From Bacteroidales bacterium (GTDB taxonomy: Bacteria; Bacteroidota; Bacteroidia; Bacteroidales; UBA7960): a stretch of DNA of 58,734 bases. The number at the start of each line of letters is the position of its first letter. Positions within the stretch are counted from its first letter, which is position 1. The notes beneath the pieces are model-generated. The model saw only the letters and a list, made by a program, of their open reading frames with translations. It was not told the origin of the DNA and did not search any database. The position numbers and the translations under genes are program-made. The stretch is taken from contig JAHYJP010000003.1 of NCBI GenBank assembly GCA_019429055.1, forward strand, positions 1 to 58,734, read 5' to 3'. Shown here one piece after another: positions 10,635-54,028 of this stretch.

Positions 10635-10755
10635 GGGGCTGTCTCATAAGCAGAATTCAATCTGGACGCTGAGCTTGTCGAAGCGGTTATCTTACTGATA
10701 TTCAGCAATCGTTTCGACAGGCTCAACGACCAGAAAGAACTTCTGAGACAGCCTC
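10635..10755. repeat. Intergenic long-hairpin repeat element, copy B (intact)
   Basis: The terminal inverted repeats are 'ggggctgtctca' (10635-10646) and 'tgagacagcctc' (10744-10755). In the inner arms 'gacgctgagcttgtcgaagcg' pairs with 'cgtttcgacaggctcaacgac' at 19 of 21 positions, counting G-U pairs. An A-run lies 5' and a T-run 3'. It sits between convergent stops at 10611 and 10778. Confidence 0.7.
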
Positions 10756-10777
10756 TTTTTTTTAATTAACGTTTTTA

Positions 10778-11764: not shown

Positions 11765-12050
11765 AATCCGGATTTTTTATTTGAATTTTTGCTTAGTGTT
11801 CAAAGATTAGCTTTTCAGAACTCTTTTTGTTCTGTTCGACAAACCTACACAAAATTTAAAAAAGTTAAACATACATAGCCAAAAAAATTGTTCTTTTGTT
11901 AAGATAATGCCTGCTTAAAAACCGAAATTCACTGAATTATGGTACATTATATGCAGTAACTTTGATTCGATTAATTTTGGGGTTGCGATAAACATTTCAA
12001 GGTTTAAGTTATTTATCTTATCCCCGGGGCAACCAATAAAGTATAAAGGA

Positions 12051-13568: not shown

Positions 13569-13781
13569 AAATTAATTCAACATTTTAAACGAGTGTTGTT
13601 ATTAAGGTATTTTTTATACTTTTGTGCCTTTATTTGCTATAAATATCCTTATTTTCGTATCTATTTTTTCTAATAAGCGTAAAAAGTAAACCGATTGATA
13701 TAATTTTTGTCAATTACCTGAGTTTATATTTTTATTTTTCACCAAAATCAACAGATTAAATTTCACTAAACACGAGAAATT

Positions 13782-15341: not shown

Positions 15342-15364
15342 TAATACACCAGATTATTTTGCTG

Positions 15365-15399
15365 AGCCGGTAAACTTTAATTGGTTTGCCGGCTTTTTC
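15365..15399 (+). terminator. Rho-independent terminator after the first FadL-like gene
   Basis: An 11-bp stem pairs agccggtaaac (15365-15375) with gtttgccggct (15384-15394), with one G-U pair, and is followed by TTTTT. Confidence 0.65.
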
Positions 15400-15539
15400 T
15401 TTCATTTTACAGGGAGGTAATTGCGAAATAAAGCGTAATCGATCGTTTGATGCCTGATTAGTATTGCCGTTCACGGTTTTCATATACACATCGGGCTTTC
15501 TGACAATGAGCTGATATCAATAACTAAAGATTTATTTAT

Positions 15540-15547
15540 TACTTTTG
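15540..15547 (+). promoter_or_regulatory. Candidate -7 promoter box (TACTTTTG)
   Basis: A TAnnTTTG match about 93 nt upstream of ATG 15640 and downstream of the terminator at 15365-15399. This is a motif match only. Confidence 0.3.
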
Positions 15548-15639
15548 TCTGCCGGCTATCCCTGCAGGAAAGCAACATTTAGCTACGTGTATCAAATATG
15601 GGCATTTTCATAAATTACCAGCTGAATTAAATTTAGTCA

Positions 15640-16872: not shown

Positions 16873-16889
16873 TACAGGTTTTTTGAAAA

Positions 16890-39499: not shown

Positions 39500-40007
39500 A
39501 AAAGTGGTTAATTATATGGATGGCATTTTGTATTCTTTTTTCTCCCTCACCGGATACTATTTCATAGTTGAAGTCATAATTTTCCAGTTCATTCTTATAC
39601 CAATCGAAGAAAAACTGACGAAGATGTGGATGCTCGCGCTGAACATCAAACTCCCAGGGTAGATCTACATCGCAGAGCAGGTAAAGATCACAGGGGTTCT
39701 TTTCTATTTGCTCCAGTATCCACGGATGACAGTTTTTGTACTTATGTAAACTCCACACCTTGGTTACGATCAGTTCGGTATCGCAAAAAAGAAACCGGTT
39801 CGCATTTAACATAGATTTCCTTTCATTCATAAGCTGGTTTTCGGCAATATGAATAATGTCGTTCTGGTTGTAACTTCGCGATAAGCCGTTGATATAATCA
39901 CGCGCAAATTCAGGCACATAAACCGTTTGAAAGTGTTCTGCCAGTTGTTTTGCCAGATTTGATTTTCCTGTTGATTCAGGTCCGGTGATTGCTATTTTCT
40001 TTACCAC
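39480..40007 (-). CDS. NadR-type P-loop ATPase (nicotinamide riboside kinase-like)
   Basis: 175-aa ORF. 'KKIAITGPESTGKSNLAKQLAEHFQTVYVPEFARDY' matches the C-terminal RNK domain of NadR. It overlaps the downstream DMT gene by 20 nt. Confidence 0.7.
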   Translation of the reverse strand: MVKKIAITGPESTGKSNLAKQLAEHFQTVYVPEFARDYINGLSRSYNQNDIIHIAENQLMNERKSMLNANRFLFCDTELIVTKVWSLHKYKNCHPWILEQIEKNPCDLYLLCDVDLPWEFDVQREHPHLRQFFFDWYKNELENYDFNYEIVSGEGEKRIQNAIHIINHFFGDRND

Positions 40008-40016
40008 TTATCGTTT

Positions 40017-40274
40017 TTACTTTTGTTTTTTCTGCAAAAAAGCATTGATGATCTTCATAACAAAAACACTTTTACCGTGCTTTTCAAAAGACTTTTCAAT
40101 TTCATCTGTCAATATTTGCATAATGGTTCTGTATTCTCCAAAAATCTGTGTACTCATACCGTTTACCTCCACAATGATCTGTTCATGCATTTTCAGGCAG
40201 TCAATAAAATCCTTAATGTCAGGTATAAATTCTCTTCCAAGCGGATACATACTTATTTCTACGGATGCTTTCAT
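40017..40274 (-). CDS. MTH1187/YkoF-family (UPF0045) thiamine-binding-like small protein
   Basis: 85-aa ORF. 'ASVEISMYPLGREFIPDIKDFIDCL' and '...GMSTQIFGEY' fit the ferredoxin-like UPF0045 pattern. Confidence 0.65.
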   Translation of the reverse strand: MKASVEISMYPLGREFIPDIKDFIDCLKMHEQIIVEVNGMSTQIFGEYRTIMQILTDEIEKSFEKHGKSVFVMKIINAFLQKKQK

Positions 40275-40475
40275 AACTTCATAAGATTTATTTCAGTTTA
40301 TAAGTTTTCTGCCAGAAAATACGTATAAATTTTTTCGGGTAATACCGGCAGAAGCTTTGCTGCAAAGATAGAATTAAGATGAAAGTGTCAGAATAATATT
40401 TTTGAAAAACCTTTTGTCTCGTTTCTCTTTTAACAAAAGCCGTTTTACACATAAATCATTCAAACATTAATTTTT

Positions 40476-40483
40476 TAAATTTG
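40476..40483 (+). promoter_or_regulatory. Candidate -7 promoter box for the signalling island (TAAATTTG)
   Basis: A TAnnTTTG match 27 nt upstream of the cheR-like ATG at 40510. It sits in a 235-nt AT-rich divergent intergenic region. Confidence 0.4.
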
Positions 40484-40509
40484 CTGCGTTCTTATATAAA
40501 CTAATCGCC

Positions 40510-41361
40510 ATGAAACCATTTCCGGGGGAAGAAATAAGCATTGGTATACTGGGATTAAGAAGACTTAACCATGTAACTTCAAGGCTGTATAATTTTGATC
40601 TCAGATCTTATGCAGCCACTTCTCTAATAAGAAAAATTGAAGCTGTAATTCAAAGAAATCATCTGAAAGATATTGATGCATTGATCCATTTGCTTGAAAC
40701 CAGGAGTTCGTTTTTCCCGGTTTTTCAAAGCCAGTTGTCCTATTCCTGTTCAGAATTATTCAGAGATCCTGCCTTCTGGAGAAGTTTTCGCGATGATGTT
40801 TTACCCGTTCTTAACAAAAACAATCAAAAAATCCGGATCTGGGTAGCAGGTTGTTCTTCAGGGGAAGAAGTCTTAAGTATTGCCATTATATTATACGAAG
40901 CAGGTTTGTATGAAAAAACTTCTGTACTTGTTACCGGCTTAAATGAATTAAGCATCAGTGAAACAAGAAGAAAAACCTACCAGGATAAACAACTGGAAAT
41001 TTCTGAAAGCAACTATAAAAGATTCTCCAGTAATGAAAATGCCCCAATTTCAAGGTATCTTAACAGAAAAGATAACCGATTTGTATTTAAAGATGAACTT
41101 TACAAAAATCTGAGATACGAAGTTTTCAACGGTTCAGAAACCAATGAAATTAAGGGTTTACACCTAGTTCTGTGCAGAAATTATTTCATATATTGCACCC
41201 CGGAATACCAGAATGAAATGCTGGGTCTGTTTACCGGAAGTTTATTACCGGGTGGTTTTCTTGCAATCGGAAATAAAGAGGATATCTCCTTTTGCGATGA
41301 TTTTAGCAGATATCTGGTATTCAACAAAAAGGAAAAGATTTTTCAGAAAAGGCCCTATTGA
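40510..41361 (+). CDS. CheR-family protein-glutamate O-methyltransferase
   Basis: 283-aa ORF. 'SELFRDPAFW' corresponds to the TxFFRD motif. 'IRIWVAGCSSGEEVLSIAIIL' is the SAM-binding motif and 'LVLCRNYFIYC' is the CRNVLIYF motif. Confidence 0.85.
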   Translation: MKPFPGEEISIGILGLRRLNHVTSRLYNFDLRSYAATSLIRKIEAVIQRNHLKDIDALIHLLETRSSFFPVFQSQLSYSCSELFRDPAFWRSFRDDVLPVLNKNNQKIRIWVAGCSSGEEVLSIAIILYEAGLYEKTSVLVTGLNELSISETRRKTYQDKQLEISESNYKRFSSNENAPISRYLNRKDNRFVFKDELYKNLRYEVFNGSETNEIKGLHLVLCRNYFIYCTPEYQNEMLGLFTGSLLPGGFLAIGNKEDISFCDDFSRYLVFNKKEKIFQKRPY

Positions 41362-41402
41362 AAGGGTTTTTAATTGTAGAAAAATATACCGGGGATGCTG
41401 TT

Positions 41403-41963
41403 ATGAACTACAGACTAGTAATAATCGGGGGTTCTGCAGGGAGTTTTCAGGTTGTGAATCAGATGCTTGCAAAGTTGCCTCAGGATTTTAAAATTCCGAT
41501 AGTTCTTGTTTTACACAGGCTTAAGCATGTAAGGCATGGATTTGTTGAGGCTCTTTCCCAGAAGTCTAATTTACCTGTTATTGAACCCGAAGATAAATCG
41601 AGCATCAGGCCAGGATATGTTTATCTTGCCCCTGCCAACTATCATCTGTTTATTGAAGTGAACGGCAGATTTGCCCTTTCTACTGAAGAGCCGGTAAACC
41701 ATTCAAGGCCTGCGATTGATTTATCATTTAAAACTGCAGCTTATTGTTTCAGAGAAAAGTTAATCGGAATAATTCTTTCCGGTGCCAATAAGGATGGGGC
41801 TTATGGCCTTAAAGCTATCAAACAAACCGGAGGATTAACTATTGTTCAGGATCCGATGGAAGCACAGATCCCTGTGATGCCCATGGCGGCGATTGAAAGA
41901 ACCGGGAAGGTTGACCATATTTTTCCGGTTAATGATATATTCAGTTTTTTATGCAAATTGTAA
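41403..41963 (+). CDS. CheB-type protein-glutamate methylesterase, catalytic domain only (no receiver)
   Basis: 'LVIIGGSAGSFQ' (nucleophile Ser), 'PIVLVLHR' (His) and 'LSGANKDGAYGL' (Asp) follow the spacing of the CheB catalytic triad. The ORF track opens at TTG 41358, which would overlap the cheR stop by 4 nt. I prefer the ATG at 41403. Confidence 0.85.
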   Translation: MNYRLVIIGGSAGSFQVVNQMLAKLPQDFKIPIVLVLHRLKHVRHGFVEALSQKSNLPVIEPEDKSSIRPGYVYLAPANYHLFIEVNGRFALSTEEPVNHSRPAIDLSFKTAAYCFREKLIGIILSGANKDGAYGLKAIKQTGGLTIVQDPMEAQIPVMPMAAIERTGKVDHIFPVNDIFSFLCKL

Positions 41964-42024
41964 ACACATTTAATTATATATATAATTCTATTCAAAACAT
42001 AAAAACATTAATACCACCAAAACT

Positions 42025-42867
42025 GTGAGGTATACCAAAATTTATATTTATTTCGGATTGAAACTTTTTCTGCTGGCTATGGGATGGATCATTTTTTACC
42101 AGCTTAAATTAATGAAATATTATACTGAGTTTGTAGATTTTCCTGAGCAGGTTTATCCTTCTTTTAATCGTGTTATTATTTCAATCAGCATCCTGCTAAT
42201 CATAAGTTTTTTGATATTAACTGTATTGACATGGAAGGAGTTTATAAGGTTAAATGCAAAAAATACCATTTCAGCAGATCAGAAGTGCGGTTCCGATTCA
42301 TTAAAGTCTCATAAAGAAAAACCTTCAACAAAAGCCAATGACCAAACCAGCGAGGAATCAGTAAAAAATATTTATGAAGTCAAAAGACAAAAACTTATAA
42401 GTTGCATTGAAAAAGATGTTACCAGTTATTCGGGAAATTCTGAAAAGATTATTGGGAAAAAGATATTAAGCTGTATATCTAAGGTATACGAGCTTACGCA
42501 GGCTGAAATATTTCTTAAAGCCGGCAATGCTGAAAAAAAGACCACATTCAGGTTATTGGCTGCCTTTGCAATTCCTGTATGCGATAATGATCCGGCAGAG
42601 TTTGATTTGGGTGAAGGGTTGATTGGACAGGTTGCACAGTACGGCAAACATCATTACATTGACGAACTTCCTGAAGGTTATTTGAATGTCCGGTCAGGTC
42701 TGGGTCAGTCTGATCCCGGCTGTTTGCTGATCTTTCCCTGGAAAGATCGAAAAGGAAAAACTTTTGCAGTCGTTGAGCTGGCATCATTCAGGCCTTTCAG
42801 CCAACAGGATATTAAATTACTGGAAAGCATTTCCGAAAATCTCATCCCGTTATTTAACCTGGATTAA
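42025..42867 (+). CDS. Membrane-anchored GAF-domain protein
   Basis: 280-aa ORF with a GTG start. It has two N-terminal TM helices and a low-complexity linker. The C-terminal GAF domain 'GEGLIGQVAQYGKHHYIDELPEGYLNVRSGLG...CLLIFPW' is paralogous to the GAF domain of the next gene. Confidence 0.7.
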   Translation: MRYTKIYIYFGLKLFLLAMGWIIFYQLKLMKYYTEFVDFPEQVYPSFNRVIISISILLIISFLILTVLTWKEFIRLNAKNTISADQKCGSDSLKSHKEKPSTKANDQTSEESVKNIYEVKRQKLISCIEKDVTSYSGNSEKIIGKKILSCISKVYELTQAEIFLKAGNAEKKTTFRLLAAFAIPVCDNDPAEFDLGEGLIGQVAQYGKHHYIDELPEGYLNVRSGLGQSDPGCLLIFPWKDRKGKTFAVVELASFRPFSQQDIKLLESISENLIPLFNLD

Positions 42868-42976
42868 TCCTGCGAAAAATGCGTAAAACACAGGGATTTT
42901 CATGTTCTTTAAAAGCTATTTTTGTCTCTGTAGGTAAAACATATAGAAATGACGGTATTATTCCTTTGTTAAAACA

Positions 42977-45592
42977 ATGAATTTGAGACATATAGTCCAT
43001 CAGGAAATCATTAGTAAAAGACAGTTTGTTCTGTATTCTTTTTTTGCAGGACTTTTTTTTCTTTTACTTACATGGGCATTGGAATCAGGAAGACAGGGAC
43101 TGGGATTTAATCTGTCATCCATACGATTCATTCACTTACAGAATCCCTTGCTCATTGTGATTGTGCTGCTGCCGGTTTCTTTGGCAGTATTATCCTGGAT
43201 TTTTTACAATTACCTGGAAAGCAGGCAAAAACTTATTAATGAGTTAAAGCAGAAACTCATAATCACGGAACAAAATACACATGACATTGCCTTGTTTGCC
43301 GGGCATATTACAAACGGGAATTATGATGTAGAGTTTGATGTTGCTGATGAGTCCGATAATCTGGCATATACTCTGCTAAACCTGAGAGATAAGCTAAAGC
43401 AAAACAATGAAAAAGAATCTCTGCAAAACTGGGAGATGACCGGAAAGGATAAAATCAGCCAGATTTTGCGGATGCATACTGATCTGAATGATCTTTCTTA
43501 CGAAGTGCTGGAGGCTTTAATCCGTTATATGGGCATTTTGCAGGGTATTTTTTACATCTACGATGAAGATGTTTCCAGGCTCAGAATTTCAGCAACCTTT
43601 GCCTATAACCGCAGAAAGTTCTTACAAGCTGAAATTTCAATTGGTGAAGGACTTGTGGGTCAGGCTGCCATTGAAAGAGACATCATTTACCGTACCGAAA
43701 TACCGGAAAATTATGTTAGCATCAGTTCCGGATTAATTGGCGATAAAAAACCTCATAGTTTACTCATTGTGCCGATGTTTATGGAAGAAAAGCTTCAGGG
43801 TGCTTTTGAATTTGCTTCTGTAAAAGAATTTAAAACTCATGAAATAGCATTCATCAAATCTATAGCTGAAATTGTAGCCCGCACAGTTTTCAATCTTAAA
43901 ATCACTGAAAAGACAGAAAAACTGCTCTACGAGGCACAAACCATGACAGAGGAATTGCGGCAGAATGAAGAACAACTGCGGCAGAATGCCGAGGAAATGA
44001 TTGTAACCCAGGAGGAACTCGAAAAAGCCAATGCACACCTTGAGGAGAAGATCCAGGAAGTAAATCAGAGCCAGAAAAGGCTTTACTCGCTGCTTGAGAA
44101 TGCTTCAGAGCTGATCTTCATCTATGATCAAAACAAAAAACTGAAATATGTCAGCCCCTCGTCCCGAAATATCCTGGGCTATTCGGAAGAAGAGATGTTT
44201 GAAGAGAAAGATATGGGTCAGATTTCTGAGAACGGCAAAAGCATAATTGATCAGATGTTTGATGATCTGTTAAGGTTTCCTGGAAAATCGCAAACTATAC
44301 AGTATAGCTTCAGACATAAGAACGGGTCAACAATTTTTCTGGAAACCACCGGCCGTAATCTTTTATATGACAATGCCATAAATGGCCTGATTCTCAATAC
44401 CAGCGACATCACCGAAAGGAAAAGAGCTGAAAAGGAACAAAGAATGAGGGGGCAAATGCAAACCCTTTCCGACAACTCTCCTGATATCATCCTTAGAATT
44501 GATACTCAAAAAAATCTGTTTTATGCAAATCCGGCACTTGAAGCCTACACCGGTATAAAAGCGGAGGAAATACTCAAAAAACAAATAACTAAAACAGAGC
44601 TTCCCAGTGACCTTACCGGTGCTATTAATAAAATTGCAGATAAAGTTTGTAAAACCAGGAAAAAAATACATCAGGAAATTACATTCATGGCCACTTCTGA
44701 TAAAAAAATAATGAGCCTGAATGCTATTCCCGAATGCGGTGAGGATAACCATCTTGAAACCATATTGTTTATACTTCATGATATCAGTGAGTTAAAGGAG
44801 ATCCAGGAAGAGATAAAGCATAAGAACGCCAAAATAACCGACAGTATAAACTATGCTTTTCGTCTGCAAAATGCAATTATGCCCAGCCAGCGATTAATGA
44901 AGGAATGCTTCCCTGATTCGTTTATGTATTATCTGCCACGCGATATTGTAAGCGGAGATTTTCCCTGGCTGTATAAAAAAGATGAGTTTATTTATATTGC
45001 TGCTGTTGATTGTACAGGTCATGGTGTGCCGGGTGCCATGCTGTCGCTCATTGGCTATTTTACCCTCAACCAGATTGTAAGCCGGACTGATAATCTGAGT
45101 CCTGATGAAATTCTGCATGAAATGCATGAGGGGGTTAAGCAAACACTACGTCAGAATATGGAAGGTGCGAGTGCCAGGGACGGAATGGACATAGCATTAT
45201 GTAAAATTGATACCAAAAACAGGAAGCTGGAGTTTTCCGGAGCTCACAGGCCCCTTTATCATGTTCATGATGGCGCTTTATATGAATACAAAGGCACAAG
45301 ATCAGCAATAGGTGGAATTTCCATGCCGGGCAAACCTGAACCTGATTTTAAAAACTACAGTATTGATATTTCAGAAAATGATTTAATATACCTTTTTTCC
45401 GATGGACTGCCTGATCAGTTTGGCGGACCACACGGTACCAAATATTTACCAAAAAGAATTAAGGAGATTGTTGTTGAGAATAATGCTTTACCCATGCATA
45501 AGATCTATGACATTTTCAATAATGACTTTAAAAAATGGCTCGGAAAAGGAAACCAGATTGATGATGTTTTGCTCATAGGAATCCGCTTATGA
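42977..45592 (+). CDS. Membrane sensor PP2C (SpoIIE/RsbU/SiaA-like) Ser/Thr phosphatase: 2TM, HAMP-like, GAF, coiled coil, PAS, PAS, PP2C
   Basis: 871-aa ORF. It has TM helices at about aa 15-40 and 55-80. The GAF domain reads 'GEGLVGQAAIERDIIYRTEIPENYVSISSGL'. PAS regions surround 'LYSLLENASELIFIYD' and 'TLSDNSPDIILRID'. The PP2C metal-site motifs are 'DIVSGDFPW', 'AAVDCTGHGVPGAMLS', 'FSDGLPDQ' and 'DDVLLIGIRL'. Confidence 0.9.
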   Translation: MNLRHIVHQEIISKRQFVLYSFFAGLFFLLLTWALESGRQGLGFNLSSIRFIHLQNPLLIVIVLLPVSLAVLSWIFYNYLESRQKLINELKQKLIITEQNTHDIALFAGHITNGNYDVEFDVADESDNLAYTLLNLRDKLKQNNEKESLQNWEMTGKDKISQILRMHTDLNDLSYEVLEALIRYMGILQGIFYIYDEDVSRLRISATFAYNRRKFLQAEISIGEGLVGQAAIERDIIYRTEIPENYVSISSGLIGDKKPHSLLIVPMFMEEKLQGAFEFASVKEFKTHEIAFIKSIAEIVARTVFNLKITEKTEKLLYEAQTMTEELRQNEEQLRQNAEEMIVTQEELEKANAHLEEKIQEVNQSQKRLYSLLENASELIFIYDQNKKLKYVSPSSRNILGYSEEEMFEEKDMGQISENGKSIIDQMFDDLLRFPGKSQTIQYSFRHKNGSTIFLETTGRNLLYDNAINGLILNTSDITERKRAEKEQRMRGQMQTLSDNSPDIILRIDTQKNLFYANPALEAYTGIKAEEILKKQITKTELPSDLTGAINKIADKVCKTRKKIHQEITFMATSDKKIMSLNAIPECGEDNHLETILFILHDISELKEIQEEIKHKNAKITDSINYAFRLQNAIMPSQRLMKECFPDSFMYYLPRDIVSGDFPWLYKKDEFIYIAAVDCTGHGVPGAMLSLIGYFTLNQIVSRTDNLSPDEILHEMHEGVKQTLRQNMEGASARDGMDIALCKIDTKNRKLEFSGAHRPLYHVHDGALYEYKGTRSAIGGISMPGKPEPDFKNYSIDISENDLIYLFSDGLPDQFGGPHGTKYLPKRIKEIVVENNALPMHKIYDIFNNDFKKWLGKGNQIDDVLLIGIRL

Positions 45593-45650
45593 TCAGACTA
45601 TCAGGTTAAGATATAAAAAAAATAATCATAACTAATTGTAAATAATAGAG

Positions 45651-46244
45651 ATGGAAAAATTTGATTACAAAGAACTTGTTTACAGTTTCCATAAGGAAAT
45701 GCTGGCCAATAATTTCACACTGGTTTACGAGGGTGAAATAACGCATCAGATCACCAAAGCCTTTACTTCGCTTACCGAAAATAAGATGGATAGTTACAGC
45801 GAGGATGCAAACATGAAAAAGAAAGTATTTCACGTGATGGTAGAATGTTTGCAAAACTTAAGTAAACATGCGGAGGATATCAGAATTTTAAAAGATAAGG
45901 GTTACTCCGGAAGTGGAATTTTTATCATTGGCAGAGTGGGGCCTGATAACGAAGACTATCATGTTCTTACCGGAAATTTAATAGAAAATTCCAGGGTTCC
46001 TGAACTTACAGAATTTCTGGATAAAATAAACAATCTGGATAAAAATGGCCTGAAGGAACTTTATAAAAAGCAAATGCGCGAAGCTACACTCTCAGAAAAG
46101 GGTGGTGCAGGGCTTGGACTGATAGATATTGCAAGGAAAACCGGAGAGAAGCTCGATTACAACTTTATTGAGATTGATGAAAAAAAATCATTTTACACCT
46201 TGAGGACCAAAATTTCAAGAAAACACCAAAGCAATAATATATAA
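45651..46244 (+). CDS. SiaB-like anti-sigma-type (HATPase_c fold) protein Ser/Thr kinase
   Basis: 197-aa ORF. 'VFHVMVECLQNLSKH' resembles an N-box and 'EKGGAGLGLIDIARKTG' is a G2-box. Its size and position, between a PP2C gene and a DUF1987 gene, match the SiaB arrangement. Confidence 0.7.
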   Translation: MEKFDYKELVYSFHKEMLANNFTLVYEGEITHQITKAFTSLTENKMDSYSEDANMKKKVFHVMVECLQNLSKHAEDIRILKDKGYSGSGIFIIGRVGPDNEDYHVLTGNLIENSRVPELTEFLDKINNLDKNGLKELYKKQMREATLSEKGGAGLGLIDIARKTGEKLDYNFIEIDEKKSFYTLRTKISRKHQSNNI

Positions 46245-46249
46245 CTGAA

Positions 46250-46624
46250 ATGGAAGTAATAAAAATAAGAGGGACTGAGGATACCCCTGATGTGTTTATA
46301 GATGCTAAAAACGGGGTTTTCGAGTTTTCAGGAAGATCATTGCCTGAAGATGTTCTGAGTTTTTATGCAACGATTTTACAAACAATTGAAGAATATATCC
46401 AGAGGCCTAATCCACGTTCTGAAGTGATATTCAGGCTCGATTATTTTAATACAGCATCATCCAAAATGATTCTCGATATTTTGATATATTTTGAACACCT
46501 TTCAAAGGAAGGACACGAAGTACTGGTGAAATGGTTTTATCATGCAGATGATGAGGACATGGAAGAAGCCGGTGAAGAATATTTTGAGATTGTAGATATA
46601 CCTTACGAAATGCATAGCTACTAA
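46250..46624 (+). CDS. DUF1987 (SiaC-like) partner-switch target protein
   Basis: 124-aa ORF starting 5 nt after the kinase gene. 'IRGTEDTPDVFIDAKNGVFEFSGRSLPEDVLSFY' and 'LDYFNTASSKMILDIL' match my recollection of the DUF1987 signature. The Thr codon ACA lies at 46451-46453 (residue 68). Confidence 0.75.
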   Translation: MEVIKIRGTEDTPDVFIDAKNGVFEFSGRSLPEDVLSFYATILQTIEEYIQRPNPRSEVIFRLDYFNTASSKMILDILIYFEHLSKEGHEVLVKWFYHADDEDMEEAGEEYFEIVDIPYEMHSY

Positions 46625-46655
46625 ACTATTGTATTTCTGCTAAATTGAATCAGTC

Positions 46656-49600
46656 ATGAGTGAAGAAATTCTCAAAGCCCTGATGCAACTCTTTGCCATC
46701 ATTGCAAGGCAGGATGTTGGTTTGTCATTGAGGGAAAGAGAATTTGTGGAAAGCTTTTTAAAGCAACAGCTCAGCGAAAGCTCCGTTAATGAATATTTAA
46801 AACTGTTTGATAGTTACATTTTACAGGAAGGAAAAACCAGGGAGGAAAATGATTCCGGAGAGGTGAAATTAACTTCGGTAAAAGACTCTGTAAAAATCCT
46901 GGGTATTGCAAAAAAAATCAATCGAACTCTTGCCCAGAAACAAAAGGTGGTAGTTCTGATCAGATTGCTGGAGCTGATTAATTCTGATCAGAATTTTACA
47001 CCACAAAGAATGGCAATTATCAACACCGTTTCTGAAGTATTTAATATAAGCAAACAGGAGTATAAGGCAATCTCGGGCTTTGTTATCAGGGAGGAATCTG
47101 AGGAACTCGATATCCCGGAGATACTCATTTCTCACTCGTATCCAAATCAAAATATAAACTCACATTTTATCCTGTCGCATCAACTTAGTGGCAGCATTAT
47201 CATCCTGAGGGTGCAAAGCGTTGATTTGTATTTTTTAAAATATACCGGCAACAGTGAATTGATGCTTAACGGACTACCTGTAAAATCAGGCCGGATATAT
47301 AATTTTGCAAATGGTTCAGTTCTTAAACAACCCATTGGCAAACCCATTTTTTACAGCGACATAGTCGCAAAATTTATTTCGGACACTGTAGAAACCAATA
47401 TTTTCTTTAGTGTCGAGAATGTAAGCCATATTTTTCCCAACGGCTGCATGGGGCTTGAAAAAATCAACATCAGCGAAATTTCGGGTAAAATGGTGGCAAT
47501 TATGGGCAACAGCGGATCCGGAAAAACTACTTTGCTGAATGTTCTTTCGGGGTCAGAGAACCCATCGCATGGAAAAGTAAATATCAACACCATAAATGTA
47601 CACTCCGACAAAGAAAAAATAAAAGGGGTAATTGGTTATATTCCCCAGGATGACCTGCTGATTGAAGAGCTCACTGTTTATGAAAATCTCTTTTACAGCA
47701 CCATGCTGGTATTCAGAGATCATTCAACACTACAGATCACCGAAAAGGTTGATAAAATGCTTACCAGTCTGGGGTTATACCAAATAAGGAATCTGAAAGT
47801 AGGCAACCCCATGAATAAAAAGATCAGCGGAGGCCAGCGCAAAAGACTCAACATCGGACTTGAACTTATTCGCGAACCTTCAGTACTTTTTGTGGATGAA
47901 CCCACATCTGGTCTTTCTTCGCGCGATTCTGAAAATGTAATGGAATTGCTGAGGGAGCTTACAGTAAGGGGAAAACTCATTTTTGTTGTAATTCACCAGC
48001 CTTCATCTGAAATCTTTAAAATGTTTGATAAGGTAGTTATTCTTGATGATGGTGGTGTGCAAATCTACTATGGTAATCCTGTGGAGGCTGCTATCTACTT
48101 TAAAAAAATTGATAACCAGATCAACAGCGATGTGGGCGAATGCCCCAAATGCGGTAATGTTACTCCTGAAGCCATCTTTAACATCATTGAATCTCAAATT
48201 GTTGATGAGTATGGCAAAACAACAGGCTTGAGAAAAGTACAGCCTAAGGAGTGGGCAAGGTATTTTGAAAATTTTTACAAGCCGGAAAAAGAACTGCAAA
48301 AGAAAACAGACCTGCCCGCCACGTATATGAAACAAGGCTGGTGGAGGCAGTTAAATATCTATTTCAGACGCGATATCAGTTCCAAACTTGCCAACAGGCA
48401 ATACATCCTTCTGAATTTACTTGAGGCCCCGGTTTTGGCATTTTTGCTGGCCTATATTATCAGGTATATCGACGATCCGGCATCTGGTGTTTATATTTTC
48501 AGAGAGAATGCCAACATAATGCCCTACCTGTTTATGTGTACGATTGTGGCACTGTTTACAGGCTTGATTGTTAGTGCCGAGGAAATTTTCAAAGACCGGA
48601 AAATACTCAAACGCGAATCGTTCCTGAACCTCAGCAGAAGCAGCTATCTGATCTCTAAAATCAATATTCTTTTTCTCATTTCAGCCATTCAGGCAATATT
48701 GTTTATATGGGTTGGTAACAGTGTGCTGGGCATCAAAGGGATGTACTTTGAGTACTGGCTGGTATTCTTTTCATTAGCTGCCCTGGCCAATGTAATCGGG
48801 CTCAATATTTCATCTGCATTCAATTCAGCAGTTACAATTTATATCATTATTCCCTTTTTAATTATACCTCAAATGGTGCTTACCGGGGCCATGTTCAGTT
48901 TCGACAGGATCAACTTTAACCTCGGGGGTGGACGTGAAAAGGTTCCTGTTATTGCCGAAATAATGCCATCCCGTTGGGCTTTTGAAGCACTTGCTGTAAA
49001 TCAGTTTATGAATAATGATTATGAAAAACACTTTTATGATATGCGAAAGCTTGAGAGTGCTTTCAATTTTAAAAATGTGTATTACATTCCGGAGTTAAAA
49101 GGATACGTTGAATCATATAAATCGAGAGTTATTGCAGGAGATGATGACCCTTTAAAAAAAGCTGACATTCTTCTTCTCCACAATGAAATATTAAAGGAAA
49201 ATAGTTCATTTTATGCTGACCATCATCAGATAATATTCGAAGATGTAAGCAGCATAAGTCCGGAAAATTTTAATTTGAATACGGCTGATGCAATTCTTTT
49301 TTACCTTGAAAAACTGGAAAGTTTTTACAGTGAAAACTTTAACAGGGTCAACTCCATTATCGACAGGCAAATTTCTGAAATGGTGAGCACCCCTGAGAAA
49401 AGGAAGGAGTACCAGCAATGGTATGATGAAAATTATAACTCGCCCCTTGCGGCATTCGTTAAAAATACATACGCTCCCCTACCCCTTGTAAGGCTCGGAA
49501 ATAAACTTGTTCAAAAGATAGACCCGGTATATCTCGACCCTTCTGACAGGCGTTTGCTCAGTTTCAGGTCGCATTTCCTGGCACCGAATAAAAACATTGC

Positions 49601-49835
49601 AGGAAGATTGGTCCCTACCTTCTACCTGAATATTACCATACTATGGTTTTTCACATTAATAGCATATCTGGCCTTGTATTTCGATATTCTCAAAAAGCTT
49701 CTTTTGTTTTTTGAAAGAAATTCCGGCAATAGTAAATCATCATTAAATGAAAATGAAAAGAATCCCATAGGAAAAAAGCTGTTTTACAAGGACCTGGAAG
49801 ATGAAAGGATTTTATCGAACACAAATTTCAATTGA
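46656..49835 (+). CDS. ABCG-type ABC transporter, fused ATPase and ABC-2 permease, with extra N-terminal modules
   Basis: 1059-aa ORF. It has Walker A 'GNSGSGKTTLLNVLSG', the signature plus Walker B 'ISGGQRKRLNIGLELIREPSVLFVDEPTSGLSS' and the H-loop 'VVIHQPS'. These are followed by about 6 TM helices and a C-terminal extension with one more TM. About 270 aa precede the ATPase: a helical TerB-like segment (aa 1-150) and a beta-rich FHA-like segment (aa 170-250). Both of those assignments are low confidence. Confidence 0.85.
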   Translation: MSEEILKALMQLFAIIARQDVGLSLREREFVESFLKQQLSESSVNEYLKLFDSYILQEGKTREENDSGEVKLTSVKDSVKILGIAKKINRTLAQKQKVVVLIRLLELINSDQNFTPQRMAIINTVSEVFNISKQEYKAISGFVIREESEELDIPEILISHSYPNQNINSHFILSHQLSGSIIILRVQSVDLYFLKYTGNSELMLNGLPVKSGRIYNFANGSVLKQPIGKPIFYSDIVAKFISDTVETNIFFSVENVSHIFPNGCMGLEKINISEISGKMVAIMGNSGSGKTTLLNVLSGSENPSHGKVNINTINVHSDKEKIKGVIGYIPQDDLLIEELTVYENLFYSTMLVFRDHSTLQITEKVDKMLTSLGLYQIRNLKVGNPMNKKISGGQRKRLNIGLELIREPSVLFVDEPTSGLSSRDSENVMELLRELTVRGKLIFVVIHQPSSEIFKMFDKVVILDDGGVQIYYGNPVEAAIYFKKIDNQINSDVGECPKCGNVTPEAIFNIIESQIVDEYGKTTGLRKVQPKEWARYFENFYKPEKELQKKTDLPATYMKQGWWRQLNIYFRRDISSKLANRQYILLNLLEAPVLAFLLAYIIRYIDDPASGVYIFRENANIMPYLFMCTIVALFTGLIVSAEEIFKDRKILKRESFLNLSRSSYLISKINILFLISAIQAILFIWVGNSVLGIKGMYFEYWLVFFSLAALANVIGLNISSAFNSAVTIYIIIPFLIIPQMVLTGAMFSFDRINFNLGGGREKVPVIAEIMPSRWAFEALAVNQFMNNDYEKHFYDMRKLESAFNFKNVYYIPELKGYVESYKSRVIAGDDDPLKKADILLLHNEILKENSSFYADHHQIIFEDVSSISPENFNLNTADAILFYLEKLESFYSENFNRVNSIIDRQISEMVSTPEKRKEYQQWYDENYNSPLAAFVKNTYAPLPLVRLGNKLVQKIDPVYLDPSDRRLLSFRSHFLAPNKNIAGRLVPTFYLNITILWFFTLIAYLALYFDILKKLLLFFERNSGNSKSSLNENEKNPIGKKLFYKDLEDERILSNTNFN

Positions 49836-49934
49836 ATTTTTAGTTACTGTTAAAATGGGTTATTTGCATAACCAATATGTTTCAAATATCGTAAAACCTA
49901 ATTGCACTATACACAGAACAAAAAAACCATCATT

Positions 49935-50843
49935 ATGAAAAAACAAAAAACAATACTGGTAATCTTGTTACTTATCCTGGGGCAATTTATGTCAGGGTGT
50001 CAGCAAGGTCAAAGGCAGGAAGCATCAGATTTGCTCTCCGATTCTTTCAGTGAAGGTGATTTAAGGCTCAACAATGCCATGATTGCCGAAGTTATTTCTT
50101 CCGTGCCTAACCCGGTTGAAATTACCTCAATTCTCCAGAAATCCGGAGTTGTTTATTCGCAGGATCTATTAAACCCTGCAGGTAATATAAGTAATTACAA
50201 TACCAACTTTCAGCGTGCACTCAATATTGGAGTTTACGGCACTGACCTGATATATATGAACATATATGATCGTACCGTTGCAACTTTAAGATACCTAAGC
50301 AATATCAGGGAACTGGCCGGTGATCTGAGAGTAGAACAATTCTTTGATTATGCAACATTAAACAGACTATCAGAAAGCAGTAAAAATGTTGATTCTGTTT
50401 TATTTATCACCAATACAGGTTTTGATAAAATGTCGAGATACCTGATTGACCAGGGAAGAAGCAATATTGCCGTACTTATTTCTGCAGGTACCTGGATTGA
50501 AAGCCTTTACATTGCTGCACATGCACAAACTACTGAAGCCAACAGAGAAACTATTAATAAAAGAATAGGTGAGCAGAAAAAAGTACTTGATAACCTGCTT
50601 TTGTTAATGAATTTTTATGGCGCAGATTCCGGTCTGGATGAACTCATTGAAGACCTTATGACAGTTAAAAAAGAATTTGATAATGTAACCATTACCTATC
50701 AATACGCCGAACCATCCATAAGAGAATCTGACGGTATGCTTGTAGTTGTTGACAATTCAAGAAGCAAAGTAGATATCAGCGACGAAACAGTCAGAAATAT
50801 TGCTAATGCCATAGCGGTTGTTCGTAATAAAATTATTGAATGA
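49935..50843 (+). CDS. Hypothetical lipoprotein
   Basis: From ATG 49935 (MKKQKTILVILLLILGQFMSGC), which gives a lipobox. The rest is predicted to be mostly helical. I recognise no family. The ORF-track start at 49902 is a TTG. Confidence 0.55.
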   Translation: MKKQKTILVILLLILGQFMSGCQQGQRQEASDLLSDSFSEGDLRLNNAMIAEVISSVPNPVEITSILQKSGVVYSQDLLNPAGNISNYNTNFQRALNIGVYGTDLIYMNIYDRTVATLRYLSNIRELAGDLRVEQFFDYATLNRLSESSKNVDSVLFITNTGFDKMSRYLIDQGRSNIAVLISAGTWIESLYIAAHAQTTEANRETINKRIGEQKKVLDNLLLLMNFYGADSGLDELIEDLMTVKKEFDNVTITYQYAEPSIRESDGMLVVVDNSRSKVDISDETVRNIANAIAVVRNKIIE

Positions 50844-50923
50844 AACGAAACCGAGCTGATAATTGAATGACTATGCCTTATTTAACACTGAAAAGAATTG
50901 TAAAACACCAAAAACGATTTAAA

Positions 50924-51364
50924 ATGAAAAAATATATTTTACTTTTTAGTTTGATTTTCCTTGTATTGTCTGTCAATAAGAGTTACTCGCAATGCGGAGA
51001 TGCCCTCCTGCAAATATGCCACAGCAAACTGGAAGATGCAAGGTTTATAAAAAGCTGGCCCATACAACTTCCTTCAAGAGCCAGGGGAGAAACACTCCCA
51101 CAGGTAAGTTTTAAACTTCCTCTAACCAGCGGAAATACATACAAGATCTTTGCCTGCAATGCATCTGAATACCAGGGTAAGGTAATTGTGAGTATCCGAA
51201 ACCAGAATGACGACCTGGTGGTTACATCTTATGTGGTTGAACAGAACAGGCATATTCCTGTGATTTTGTTTCCTGTTTCCATGAGCGGAATCTACACTTT
51301 CAGCTTCTACTTTGAGGATGGGAAAGAAGGTTGCGCCGTTGGAGTTGTATCAATTGCCGATTAG
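50924..51364 (+). CDS. Hypothetical small secreted Cys-containing protein
   Basis: From ATG 50924 (MKKYILLFSLIFLVLSVNKSYSQ), which gives a signal peptide. The mature part is about 125 aa, beta-rich, with 4 Cys. I recognise no family. Confidence 0.5.
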   Translation: MKKYILLFSLIFLVLSVNKSYSQCGDALLQICHSKLEDARFIKSWPIQLPSRARGETLPQVSFKLPLTSGNTYKIFACNASEYQGKVIVSIRNQNDDLVVTSYVVEQNRHIPVILFPVSMSGIYTFSFYFEDGKEGCAVGVVSIAD

Positions 51365-51482
51365 TTCTGAAACCACAAATAATTCCCGGAATCGGCATAA
51401 AATCTTGTTTTTAAGTAAAACTCGGTAATTAAGTGTTCGGGTTTTTCTTAGTTTAGCGTACTTTCTCCAAATATATAATATC

Positions 51483-51875
51483 ATGAATACCAGCAAGAAA
51501 AAGCAAATATTTGTAATTGAAGACAACAAAACCGAAGGTATGTTGCTTAAACTTTGTTTGGGGTCAGTTAAGAATGTATCAGTTACTAATTATAGCTATG
51601 GTGAAGAACTTCTGAAAAACCTTGACAAGCATCCGGAAATAGTAATTGCCGATATGATGCTTCCTGATATTGCAGGCGAAGAACTTATCCATGCAATCAA
51701 GGAAAACAGTCCGCAAACAGAGGTTATTGTGGTTTCCTCCCAGAAAGATGTTGATCTGATAGCGAGGGTTCAGGAAATGGGTATATACAATTACCTGGTA
51801 AAGAGCGAAACCTGCATGGAATTGCTTCAGAAGGCCATAGAAGATCTCACCTTTCTTATAGATAACAGACGATAA
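51483..51875 (+). CDS. Stand-alone response-regulator receiver protein
   Basis: 130-aa ORF. It has 'IFVIEDN', the phospho-acceptor context 'VIADMMLPDIAG', 'VIVVSS' and 'YNYLVKS' (conserved Lys). There is no output domain. Confidence 0.85.
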   Translation: MNTSKKKQIFVIEDNKTEGMLLKLCLGSVKNVSVTNYSYGEELLKNLDKHPEIVIADMMLPDIAGEELIHAIKENSPQTEVIVVSSQKDVDLIARVQEMGIYNYLVKSETCMELLQKAIEDLTFLIDNRR

Positions 51876-51894
51876 GAACTTACTGGTTTAATCC

Positions 51895-51922
51895 AACGGG
51901 CTTTGCAAAGCCCGTTTTTTTA
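51895..51922 (+). terminator. Rho-independent terminator
   Basis: The stem pairs aacgggcttt (51895-51904) with aaagcccgtt (51907-51916) and is followed by T7. By eye, this is the first strong GC hairpin plus T-run downstream of 40510. Confidence 0.7.
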
Positions 51923-51946
51923 TTTCATATCTGTTCCTTATTGATT

Positions 51947-51954
51947 TATATTTG
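51947..51954 (+). promoter_or_regulatory. Candidate -7 promoter box (TATATTTG)
   Basis: A TAnnTTTG match 225 nt upstream of ATG 52180. The extended context 'gatttatatttgct' resembles 'gattatatttgct' at 53926-53939. Confidence 0.35.
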
Positions 51955-52179
51955 CTAAATTTAGTTAGGATTTCTTGCGTCATACGATGGCTGTTAATAA
52001 CTTTCGTAAGTTATAAATCCTGTAAATGAAAAACCAACAGGAAAAATATCTGTTATTTTTTAGTTATTCGTAAAAAGTAACTTCAAATAGAGAAATCCCG
52101 TAAATAGTTTAAAGAAATTTTTGATAAATTGGCCACGTTTTAAATAAACATAAAAAGTACAGGTAATTATTCCCGCATT

Positions 52180-52617
52180 ATGAATAAAAATGTAACCATT
52201 ATTATTGCCGAGGATGATGAAGGACATGCTTTTCTCATCAAAAGAAATCTCAGCAAATCGGGTTTAATTAACCCTATCATTCATTTTAAGGATGGAGACG
52301 AAGTTCTTAATTTTTTCAAACAGATCAGCAAAGGAGAACTTGCAGATCCTGGCAAAGGATATATTGTTTTGCTGGATATTAAGATGCCAAAGGTTGATGG
52401 TACGGAGGTGCTTGAAAAAATGAAATCGGATCAGGTGCTGAGAAAAATTCCCATCATAATGATAACTACTACCGATGCACCTGCCGAAGTTGAACTTTGT
52501 CATAAACTGGGCTGTAACAGTTATATCGTGAAACCTATCGATTATGAAAAATTCATTGATGTAGTTAAGAGACTGGGTTATTTTCTTGAAATAGTAGAAA
52601 TTCCAAATGCAGGTTAA
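52180..52617 (+). CDS. Stand-alone response-regulator receiver protein
   Basis: 145-aa ORF. It has 'IIIAEDDEGH', 'IVLLDIKMPKVDG', 'IIMITTT' and 'NSYIVKP'. There is no output domain. Confidence 0.9.
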   Translation: MNKNVTIIIAEDDEGHAFLIKRNLSKSGLINPIIHFKDGDEVLNFFKQISKGELADPGKGYIVLLDIKMPKVDGTEVLEKMKSDQVLRKIPIIMITTTDAPAEVELCHKLGCNSYIVKPIDYEKFIDVVKRLGYFLEIVEIPNAG

Positions 52618-52620
52618 AAC

Positions 52621-53877
52621 ATGGCAAAAACCAGGAAAGCGAAGTCGGAAACGGGGCAAAAAAACCTGATTCCTGTATGGATTATTGAAGATGACCAGTA
52701 TCTTAATGGTATTATTAAACGAACTCTCCAAAAGCAGGGATTTAATTGTATTTCATTTCTGAGTGCAAAAGAAACATCCGATCACATCAATACATTTCCT
52801 GGAGGCAAGATAAATGCAATCATGCTTATTGACTACCTGCTTGGAGAAAGTGATGCAGTTAAACTGCTGAATGAAATAAATGAACTTGGGTATTCTATCC
52901 CGTTTGTTGTAATGACAGGTCAGGGCAGCCAGAAGACAGCCGTTGAGCTTATGAAATTGGGTGCGATGGACTATGTCATTAAAGAAGATGATTTCGTTGA
53001 CCAGATTGTTAGAAGCCTGATGCATGTTACAGAAAAAATTGCTGTTAACCGGAAGCTTGAAGAATCAAAAAAGAAATTAAAATCGAATGCCGAAAAACTC
53101 AAAGCTCTCAACGATGAAATCATAATGCAGAAAATCCTCGTTGAGAATGAAAAGGCCAAAACAGACAAGTTGCTGCAAAGTATTTTGCCATTGAAAATTG
53201 CCAATGAGCTTCTTGATAAAGGTTATACAAAACCCAGGGAGTACGATTCAGTTTCTATTCTTTTTGCTGATGTGATTGGGTTTTCTGACCTGGCTAAAAG
53301 CAGTCCGGCTATTGAACTGGTTACCCGTCTCGATAATTACTTTTACATTTTTGATGAGATAATAGAGCAATTCGGATTGGAAAAAATTAAAACCATCGGT
53401 GATTGTTATATGTGTGCGGGTGGCATACCTGAAGAAAATAATCATAATGCTGTTATTGCTGTAATAGTAGGATTGAAAATACAGGCAACTACTCTTAGTT
53501 TGCTCGATGAGAACGATGAAAGCCTCCCCAGTTTCAGGCTGAGGCTGGGTATTCATAGCGGGCCGGTGGTAGCAGGCGTTGTAGGTAAAAATAAATTCGT
53601 TTATGATATTTGGGGAGACGCCGTAAATATTGCAAGCAGGATTGTTGAAGCCAGCGAAAGAGACAAAGTGAATATTTCCGAAGAGACATATAAGCTGGTA
53701 AAAAAGTATTTTATTTTCTCTGAAAGAGGCGAAATCATTACCAAAAGGAATTATCCCATAAAGATGTATTTTGTTGAGCGGTTAAAACCTGAGTATTCTG
53801 CTGATGATGAAGGTTTATCGCCCAGTAAAAAATTACTTAAAGAACTCAACATTAACCAGGGTGTAAAATACTATTAA
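52621..53877 (+). CDS. Response regulator fused to a class III adenylate cyclase
   Basis: 418-aa ORF starting 3 nt after the previous stop. The receiver motifs are 'VWIIEDDQ', 'IMLIDYLLG', 'VVMTGQG' and 'KLGAMDYVIK'. A coiled coil follows. The cyclase motifs are 'VSILFADVIGFS', 'KIKTIGDCYMCAGG', 'LRLGIHSGPVVAGVVG' and 'YDIWGDAVNIASR'. Confidence 0.9.
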   Translation: MAKTRKAKSETGQKNLIPVWIIEDDQYLNGIIKRTLQKQGFNCISFLSAKETSDHINTFPGGKINAIMLIDYLLGESDAVKLLNEINELGYSIPFVVMTGQGSQKTAVELMKLGAMDYVIKEDDFVDQIVRSLMHVTEKIAVNRKLEESKKKLKSNAEKLKALNDEIIMQKILVENEKAKTDKLLQSILPLKIANELLDKGYTKPREYDSVSILFADVIGFSDLAKSSPAIELVTRLDNYFYIFDEIIEQFGLEKIKTIGDCYMCAGGIPEENNHNAVIAVIVGLKIQATTLSLLDENDESLPSFRLRLGIHSGPVVAGVVGKNKFVYDIWGDAVNIASRIVEASERDKVNISEETYKLVKKYFIFSERGEIITKRNYPIKMYFVERLKPEYSADDEGLSPSKKLLKELNINQGVKYY

Positions 53878-53929
53878 ACCATTCGCAAAACCTCATTCTT
53901 TTAAAATCTGCAAATTGCCTACTTATGAT

Positions 53930-53937
53930 TATATTTG
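53930..53937 (+). promoter_or_regulatory. Candidate -7 promoter box (TATATTTG)
   Basis: A TAnnTTTG match 91 nt upstream of ATG 54029. Confidence 0.35.
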
Positions 53938-54028
53938 CTGTTAATTGGTTGTCAGGTAGTTCTTATTACCTAACTTTATATGCTAATTTTAAAGTATAAC
54001 AAGGAATTTACCAAGAATTAAACCCGTT

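Follow-up and report, generated by a model that had tools for sequence, protein, structure and literature searches.

What does a SiaC-type phosphoprotein control when no diguanylate cyclase is encoded near it? The question is raised by the gene at positions 46250–46624 of a 58,734-nucleotide stretch of Bacteroidales DNA (GenBank assembly GCA_019429055.1, contig JAHYJP010000003.1, positions 1 to 58,734), which we refer to as the window. A first-pass annotation, made from the letters and a list of open reading frames (ORFs), had described the product as a SiaC-like protein with a conserved threonine at residue 68 and no diguanylate cyclase partner, and had named an ATP-binding cassette (ABC) transporter and a REC-adenylate cyclase as the nearest candidate effectors. 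To our knowledge, SiaABC is understood only in Pseudomonas, as the controller of a cyclic di-GMP (c-di-GMP) cyclase, and c-di-GMP signalling is sparse in Bacteroidota. From homology and comparative gene order, we put at roughly 0.6 the probability that the locus encodes a SiaABC-type switch in which an exporter module has replaced the diguanylate cyclase as output. The SiaC-like gene and the genes, domains and hairpin placed around it below, from the CheR-type methyltransferase to the terminator-like hairpin, all lie on the + strand.

The SiaC-like protein and its conserved threonine

The SiaC-like gene begins with ATG and encodes a putative regulatory phosphoprotein of 124 residues, assigned by Pfam, NCBIfam, a PDB search and an alignment of its clade. 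It matches Pfam PF09345 (‘SiaC family regulatory phosphoprotein’, formerly DUF1987; curated gathering cut-off 24.5 bits) with 125.4 bits and E = 1.3e-36, with residues 6–123 placed on profile positions 1–119 of 120. A phmmer search of the PDB matched Pseudomonas aeruginosa SiaC (6kko_C, 6kkp, 7e6g and 6k4f) with E = 8e-13. Curated profile criteria place the protein in the SiaC family, and the two matches bear out the name given to it in the first-pass annotation.

The alignment to SiaC has no gaps, with query residues 4–122 running against PDB chain positions 5–123 and 34/119 residues identical. Because the numbering of the PDB chain is offset by one extra N-terminal residue (L-H-I-P-G-T runs from chain position 5, native L4), the query Thr68 corresponds to the native SiaC Thr68. 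The first-pass annotation had read residue 68 as a threonine encoded by ACA at 46451–46453, which the ORF confirms, and had left its homology with the SiaC phosphosite to an alignment, in which T68 now falls on T68. This predicted phospho-acceptor sits within LDYFNTASSKMILDIL, where the local block YFNTASSK stands opposite YLNTSSIK of P. aeruginosa SiaC. Thr68, together with Y65, N67, A69, S70, S71, K72 and the whole YFNTASSK block, is invariant in 81/81 clade sequences.

In P. aeruginosa, mass spectrometry and enzyme assays have established that SiaB phosphorylates and SiaA dephosphorylates SiaC at Thr68 (PMC7647112), and phosphorylation of Thr68 prevents SiaC from binding the cyclase SiaD (PMC8457831). 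The first-pass annotation had likewise given Thr68 as the phosphorylated residue, within an ‘LNTSS’-type motif, and the unphosphorylated form as the activator of SiaD. The SiaC fold is STAS-like (PMC7647112, PMC8457831). Twelve SiaC residues touch the SiaD stalk, namely Q10, D29, Y31, Y65, N67, T68, S69, I71, M75, R103, L107 and E110 (PMC8457831). Four of these 12 are retained in the SiaC-like protein (Y65, N67, T68 and E110) and eight are replaced; seven of the eight replacements (R29, L31, A69, S71, L75, D103 and A107) are invariant in the clade, and position 10 is either D or E. This pattern, with the phospho-loop retained and the contact periphery fixed anew, fits a different but fixed partner surface.

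A SiaB-family kinase and a SiaA-like phosphatase beside the SiaC-like gene

The gene that ends 5 nucleotides (nt) before the SiaC-like gene (45651–46244, 197 residues) encodes a predicted SiaB-family serine/threonine kinase (DUF6272), identified with NCBIfam, Pfam and the PDB. It scores 170 bits against the NCBIfam model NF038262 (SiaB_fam_kinase, cut-off 85), and matches Pfam PF19788 with E = 2e-41 and the SiaB chain 6kko_A with E = 1.2e-14, with the ATP-binding boxes E..QN and GAGLGL intact. This upstream neighbour thereby falls, by curated criteria, within the SiaB kinase family.

A SiaA-like sensor phosphatase (42977–45592, 871 residues) is encoded upstream of the kinase; Pfam and PDB matches and predictions give it two transmembrane (TM) segments, one GAF and two PAS domains, and a C-terminal PP2C (SpoIIE) domain. 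The PP2C part matches Pfam SpoIIE with E = 1e-19 and the crystal structure of SiaA-PP2C (6k4e) with E = 1.6e-35, and the match to the NCBIfam SiaA model is limited to this part of the protein. Alignment to 6k4e places the PP2C metal-binding motifs GDF, DCTGHG, DGLPDQ and DDV, all of them intact; the metal-binding aspartates of the SiaA PP2C domain are listed in PMC7647112. Between the GAF domain and the PAS domains there is a Glu/Gln-rich coiled coil, TEELRQNEEQLRQNAEEMIVTQEELEKANAHLEEK (window 43890–44070, SiaA-like residues ~305–365).

Since a SiaB-family kinase and a SiaA-type PP2C phosphatase are both present, the SiaC-like gene is part of a complete partner-switch set and is no orphan. 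The first-pass annotation had missed the kinase 5 nt upstream as well as the phosphatase. That SiaB and SiaC belong together is confirmed by SiaB–SiaC fusion proteins, which are found elsewhere in the SiaC family. The scheme in which the kinase acts on Thr68, the PP2C enzyme removes the phosphate and the phospho-state decides the partner has homology behind it in this cluster and experiments behind it in Pseudomonas. We consider it very probable, on sequence grounds, that the adjacent kinase and phosphatase run a functional phospho-switch at Thr68.

An ABC exporter directly follows the SiaC-like gene across Bacteroidota

One genome per species was scanned for relatives of the SiaC-like protein, giving 573 confirmed matches, and the best 80 of the 573 were compared with 10-kb flanks. 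ORFs were called in all 80 loci and searched with the window proteins; all counts refer to loci with enough sequence on the relevant side. The 80 loci comprise Bacteroidales metagenome-assembled genomes (MAGs), Carboxylicivirga, Alkaliflexus imshenetskii and one Vicingaceae (Flavobacteriales) MAG.

The conserved order is CheR, CheB, a TM-GAF protein, the SiaA-like phosphatase, the SiaB-like kinase, the SiaC-like protein, an ABC exporter, a lipoprotein and a small secreted protein. The kinase is directly upstream of the SiaC gene in 77/77 loci and the phosphatase is next upstream in 67/70, with the TM-GAF protein (61/66), CheB (58/64) and CheR (57/62) farther upstream. The first-pass annotation had proposed a survey of what lies 3' of such genes in Bacteroidota, and this returned the ABC exporter, directly downstream in 79/80 loci, then the lipoprotein (67/68) and the secreted protein (64/67). 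A single-domain response regulator is found downstream in 9/60 loci and a REC-adenylate cyclase anywhere in the locus in 1/60. The first-pass annotation had correctly placed the ABC gene 31 nt and the REC-adenylate cyclase ~6 kb downstream in the window (5997 nt after the SiaC stop); across loci, a median of 41.5 nt separates the SiaC stop codon from the start of the ABC gene. At one locus (L049), an apparent absence of the ABC gene is a 100-N assembly gap.

The same arrangement extends beyond the 80 loci. Fulvivirga maritima (Cytophagales), found through the exporter N-terminus, has the whole cluster, with genes labelled in Pfam as CheR, CheB_methylest, GAF, HAMP-GAF-PAS-SpoIIE, DUF6272, SiaC, TerB+ABC_tran and ABC2_membrane, and two unlabelled genes. 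The position of the exporter directly after the SiaC gene is near-invariant across three orders (Bacteroidales, Flavobacteriales and Cytophagales). In Carboxylicivirga (L039 and L073) and in the Vicingaceae MAG (L011), the order SiaB, SiaC, ABC exporter, lipoprotein and secreted protein is kept where no phosphatase, CheR or CheB is adjacent, and these five genes therefore form a stable core unit. The Vicingaceae locus also carries two tandem SiaC-like genes ahead of the exporter (9998–10789 of L011; OZ253959.1), the second of which is divergent and keeps YFNTSSSK with its threonine, and its SiaA-like phosphatase lies 3' of the exporter module, not 5'.

Because the other conserved genes of the cluster encode signalling proteins, the exporter module is the sole candidate output encoded in cis. 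With such strong synteny behind it, the exporter is likely the strongest effector candidate. Of the two nearby effectors proposed in the first-pass annotation, the ABC transporter is strongly supported, by the synteny in 79/80 loci and in Fulvivirga, and the cyclase is not supported, with its single occurrence in 60 loci.

The exporter is ABCG-like and carries a conserved cytoplasmic N-terminus

The ABC protein comprises 1059 residues (46656–49835). Residues 250–790 (47403–49025) hold the nucleotide-binding domain and the ABC-2 membrane domain of an ABCG-like half-transporter, as judged from Pfam and from alignment to ABCG2. The Pfam matches are to ABC_tran (residues 269–418) and ABC2_membrane (residues 565–784), the nucleotide-binding domain being N-terminal, and human ABCG2 aligns with residues 267–752 with E = 3e-38; the score against TIGR00955 is 262 bits, under the cut-off of 736 for that model. 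By homology, the core is an ABCG-like (ABC-2, type V) half-transporter. The C-terminal part (residues 791–1059, 49026–49835) is a poorly conserved extension with no Pfam domain and one more predicted TM helix near residues 985–1019.

N-terminal to this core are ~245 additional cytoplasmic residues that are strongly conserved. Residues 1–145 (46656–47090) form a TerB-like helical domain, predicted to be cytoplasmic and recognised by Pfam TerB (E = 4e-7), the AlphaFold2 model and Foldseek, and residues 146–245 (47091–47390) form a beta domain that Foldseek comparison with FHA domains marks as degenerate FHA-like. The AlphaFold2 model of the N-terminus, built with 35 homologues, has a predicted local distance difference test (pLDDT) score of 87.8 and a predicted template modelling (pTM) score of 0.84, with helices across residues 3–144 and the beta domain across residues 156–235. 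In Foldseek the helical domain resembles the TerB-like structure 2h5n (PG1108), and the beta domain is weakly like dozens of FHA domains (E 0.01–0.1, probability 0.97–1.0, target template modelling score 0.45–0.54).

A search with Pfam FHA (PF00498) found no match in the exporter N-terminus up to E = 10, and among 72 orthologues no phosphothreonine-binding Arg, His or Asn is conserved in the FHA-like loops, where S188 and the structural N205–G206 are kept. We rejected a canonical FHA domain on both counts, the resemblance being limited to the fold; because neither the Pfam match nor the conserved binding residues are there, we make no claim of phosphothreonine recognition by the exporter. Invariance reaches 95% or more at 48/145 positions of the TerB-like domain, which opens in nearly all orthologues with the 22 residues MSEEIL.ALMQLF.....QD.G. 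This degree of constraint on the N-terminus fits a protein–protein interface.

The accompanying genes and the transcription unit

The gene after the exporter encodes a predicted lipoprotein of 302 residues with Cys22 as its lipoprotein cysteine (49935–50843). This is the probable true start, the ORF being listed from 49902, since the homologues are 302 residues long with an invariant Cys22. An AlphaFold2 model (pLDDT 84.5) shows a helical bundle followed by a four-stranded sheet and a helix. Foldseek found no similar fold in the PDB (best E = 0.6), and sequence searches of Pfam, NCBIfam and the PDB gave no match; the homologues are all annotated as ‘hypothetical’ and have no Pfam domain. From the model, this is possibly a new fold family tied to the exporter. 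The next gene encodes a small secreted protein of ~146 residues with a predicted signal peptide (50924–51364, again the probable true start, the ORF being listed from 50867). It has no family match in Pfam, NCBIfam or the PDB, and a match to cystatin A is at chance level (E = 0.006 over 54 residues).

A CheR-type methyltransferase is the first gene of the cluster (40510–41361; PF01739 label in Fulvivirga maritima). It overlaps by 4 nt a CheB-type methylesterase without a receiver domain (41358–41963; PF01339 in Fulvivirga), which is followed by a small membrane protein with two predicted TM helices and a C-terminal GAF domain (42025–42867; Pfam GAF_2, E = 5e-8), the TM-GAF protein. Despite CheR and CheB heading the cluster, the window encodes no methyl-accepting chemotaxis protein (MCP), CheA or CheW. 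The methylation targets of the two enzymes may be the GAF proteins or the phosphatase instead of a chemoreceptor, and the coiled coil of the phosphatase is a conceivable substrate, though a poor fit to the MCP methylation consensus. Many relatives have a second CheR and a GAF/PAS protein (~720–890 residues) farther upstream, and in some relatives a CheB-CheR-PAS fusion of ~1240 residues lies downstream.

From CheR to the secreted protein, the intergenic gaps are −4, 61, 109, 58, 5, 31, 66 and 23 nt. A single-domain response regulator (51483–51875, Pfam Response_reg) follows, and is probably the last gene of the transcription unit here; it is not a conserved member of the cluster. Just after it, at 51895–51926, is a terminator-like hairpin with a 9-bp stem, five GC pairs and a following T run, the sole strong one on the + strand in 40000–52700. 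The gaps and the one strong terminator after the response regulator suggest that the genes from CheR through these downstream genes form a single transcription unit. A sigma-70 promoter scan, which does not cover Bacteroidota promoters, was uninformative, with 53 candidates against 40 expected.

A second signalling block (51483–56398) extends past the terminator, with two single-domain response regulators, the REC-adenylate cyclase and a PAS hybrid histidine kinase (54029–56398). It is common to the closest relatives only (for example L003) and is outside the conserved cluster. Elsewhere in the window, two FadL/TodX-type outer-membrane channels and then a GDSL lipase (13782–18182) are unrelated to the cluster and suggest uptake of hydrophobic substrates.

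Which output does the switch act on?

The GG[DE]EF motif is absent from all six frames of the window and from the ORFs of the 80 related loci (~1.4 Mb), and no GGDEF, EAL or HD-GYP Pfam domain was found in window ORFs of at least 110 residues. The first-pass statement that the 58.7-kb window has no GGDEF or EAL gene is upheld by both the Pfam and the six-frame motif searches, and its description of the protein as having no diguanylate cyclase partner is true of the window, while being less unusual than it implied. The SiaC family holds ~4,300 clusters at 50% identity, and among the best 150 of these the fusions include SiaB–SiaC, tandem SiaC, cytidylate-kinase-like, HEAT and zinc ribbon proteins (for example P0370, P0416, P0377 and P0363), which suggests that many different outputs or inputs have made use of the SiaC switch domain. 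The authors of the SiaC–SiaD structure proposed that DUF1987 proteins modulate a protein encoded adjacently (PMC8457831). Given a family this large, fusions this diverse and a proposal already made for adjacent proteins, the absence of a cyclase is not surprising.

The switch might still act on a distal partner, such as a GGDEF cyclase, another enzyme or a transcription factor, with the exporter merely sharing its operon. The many domains to which the SiaC family is joined would allow this, since partners need not adjoin, and the sequence examined is the window and the ~10-kb flanks of the related loci; two loci described below also show the two halves apart. We nevertheless consider a distal partner unlikely, in view of the SiaB–SiaC–ABC–lipoprotein–secreted protein order, which persists in 79/80 loci and across three or more taxonomic orders, loci with a relocated phosphatase included. 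For a distal GGDEF partner in particular, zero GG[DE]EF motifs were found in the window and in the ~1.4 Mb of related loci, and many Bacteroidota have, as far as we know, few or no GGDEF proteins. By flux sensing of the kind seen in Bce-type modules, the exporter could instead be an input, its transport activity or substrate load being signalled through the TerB/FHA-like N-terminus to SiaB and SiaC, with the switch acting elsewhere. The extra cytoplasmic domains are of a kind used in protein–protein signalling, and the N-terminus is conserved at a locus (L082) that has no adjacent SiaB or SiaC. This direction of flow seems improbable for a cluster that is already rich in inputs (the GAF-PAS-PAS phosphatase, the TM-GAF protein, CheR and CheB) and has no other candidate output, and it runs opposite to the characterised flow from phosphatase and kinase through SiaC to the effector (PMC7647112, PMC8457831). 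The least probable effector is the REC-adenylate cyclase (52621–53877), which would make the locus a cyclic AMP analogue of SiaABCD. In its favour, it is a nucleotide cyclase, shares the strand of the cluster in the window and recurs in L003, the closest complete relative; against this, it occurs in 1/60 loci with enough downstream sequence, on which ground we rejected it as the conserved partner, and between it and the cluster lie the strong terminator (51895–51916) and a gap of 304 nt. It also has an independent input, through a receiver domain of its own and the adjacent hybrid histidine kinase.

An exchange of output to the exporter module is the reading we prefer, and several observations weigh against it. 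Conserved synteny can mean co-regulation rather than direct binding, and a run search for the sequence returned one DNA run (a volcano metagenome) and zero RNA runs. One locus (L040) has SiaA, SiaB and SiaC without the exporter, the single real exception among the 80. Conversely, the exporter (its N-terminus conserved as elsewhere), the lipoprotein and the secreted protein are present at L082, where neither SiaB nor SiaC is adjacent. Since these two loci hold the separated halves, coupling of switch and exporter is not obligatory in cis. The L082 genes (10001–14518, on a 4.99-Mb contig) are broken by apparent frameshifts, as in a long-read assembly. No SiaC–ABC or SiaC–TerB fusion was found among the best 150 of the ~4,300 family clusters, and because the FHA-like domain lacks the canonical phosphothreonine-binding residues, it offers no ready-made docking mechanism. 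Coupling of the switch to the exporter by direct binding, which we infer from the arrangement of the genes and the constraint on their products, is a narrower proposal that falls somewhat short of even odds.

Proposed mechanism and its implications

In the mechanism that we propose, the SiaB-family kinase would phosphorylate Thr68 at the start of helix alpha-2 of the SiaC-like protein, and the membrane-bound GAF-PAS-PAS-PP2C phosphatase would strip this phosphate when its sensor domains detect their signals, with CheR and CheB possibly tuning the phosphatase by methylation. In one of its phospho-states, which by analogy would be the unphosphorylated one, the SiaC-like protein would then bind a partner and alter the activity of that partner. 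The most likely partner would be the ABCG-type exporter of the same operon, with its TerB-like/FHA-like N-terminus or its ATPase domain as the site of contact; the exporter would presumably work together with the lipoprotein and the small secreted protein. The full scheme, in which phospho-dependent docking directly gates an ABCG-type exporter and the phosphatase is tuned by CheR and CheB without MCP, CheA or CheW, is doubtful enough that we put it forward only tentatively.

In the searchable literature, DUF1987 is named in one paper, none of the papers listed mentions DUF6272 or connects SiaB or partner-switching with a Bacteroidetes system, and a 2025 SiaABCD paper is silent on distribution and transporters. 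Judged by that literature, the phylum-wide cluster linking the switch to a TerB/FHA-like ABCG exporter is new, as are the two uncharacterised envelope proteins conserved alongside the exporter and the presence of CheR and CheB on the input side. The same switch chemistry, in phosphosite, kinase and phosphatase, is tied by gene order to an ABC exporter across several Bacteroidota orders. If the SiaC-like protein binds the exporter, the cluster would provide a tractable natural case in which a STAS-like protein exerts phosphorylation-dependent, post-translational control over an ABC transporter, a mechanism so far only suggested for MlaB–MlaF, and a first functional context for the TerB/FHA-like exporter, the lipoprotein and the secreted protein. 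If the docking and the CheR/CheB reading are both true, it would be the first natural phospho-regulated STAS-like ABC regulator, and a new use of chemotaxis-type adaptation enzymes. Alkaliflexus imshenetskii (DSM 15055), Carboxylicivirga (C. taeanensis) and Fulvivirga maritima are cultivable carriers of the cluster, which makes the idea testable.

Comparison with known systems

The nearest known system is SiaABCD of P. aeruginosa (PA0172–PA0169), to whose solved structures the three switch proteins match (SiaC E = 8e-13, SiaB ~1e-14, SiaA-PP2C ~2e-35). The gene order of phosphatase, kinase, phosphoprotein and effector is shared, and Thr68, N67, Y65 and the catalytic motifs are kept. The fourth gene, however, encodes SiaD with its GGDEF domain in Pseudomonas and an ABCG-like exporter here. 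The phosphatase sensor here is GAF-PAS-PAS, not the SiaA N-terminus; CheR, CheB and the TM-GAF protein are added upstream, and 8/12 SiaD-contact residues are replaced. Scores against the NCBIfam equivalog models are below their cut-offs for SiaC (80.3 against 150), SiaB (83.8 against 225) and SiaA (171 against 700). With all three proteins under the equivalog cut-offs and SiaD absent, the set should not be filed as SiaABCD.

A STAS-type protein in contact with an ABC transporter has a precedent in MlaFEDB of Escherichia coli, where MlaB, a STAS domain protein, binds the ABC ATPase MlaF through an interface centred on Thr52. A T52E substitution weakens this binding; whether MlaB is phosphorylated was left open by the authors (PMC7367683). 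In both systems a small STAS-like protein is encoded with an ABC transporter, and in MlaB a threonine at the anti-sigma-antagonist phosphosite position lies in the interface. MlaB has no known kinase or phosphatase, whereas a dedicated pair is encoded here, and the transporter is of the MlaE type there and ABCG-like here. The likeness is one of mechanism, by analogy only.

In Mycobacterium tuberculosis, threonine phosphorylation activates Rv1747, an ABC exporter whose N-terminus carries FHA domains (PMC3138270). Rv1747 and PknF resemble the present cluster in joining, in one operon, a Ser/Thr kinase and an ABC-2/ABCG-like exporter with cytoplasmic FHA at the N-terminus. In Rv1747, however, the two FHA domains are canonical, and the exporter is itself the substrate of a Hanks-type kinase; the exporter here has a degenerate FHA-like domain after a TerB-like domain, and the GHKL-type SiaB would act on a separate STAS-like protein.

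The classical partner switches (RsbU/V/W and SpoIIE/AA/AB) and the HsbA–HsbD and BgrV–BgrR systems resemble this cluster in combining a PP2C phosphatase and a GHKL Ser/Thr kinase with a phosphoprotein that is STAS-like and picks its partner by phospho-state (PMC7647112, PMC8457831). They differ from it in output and in phosphoprotein: the cluster described here has no sigma factor or cyclase output, and its phosphoprotein is of the DUF1987/SiaC family rather than a canonical STAS domain (PF01740).

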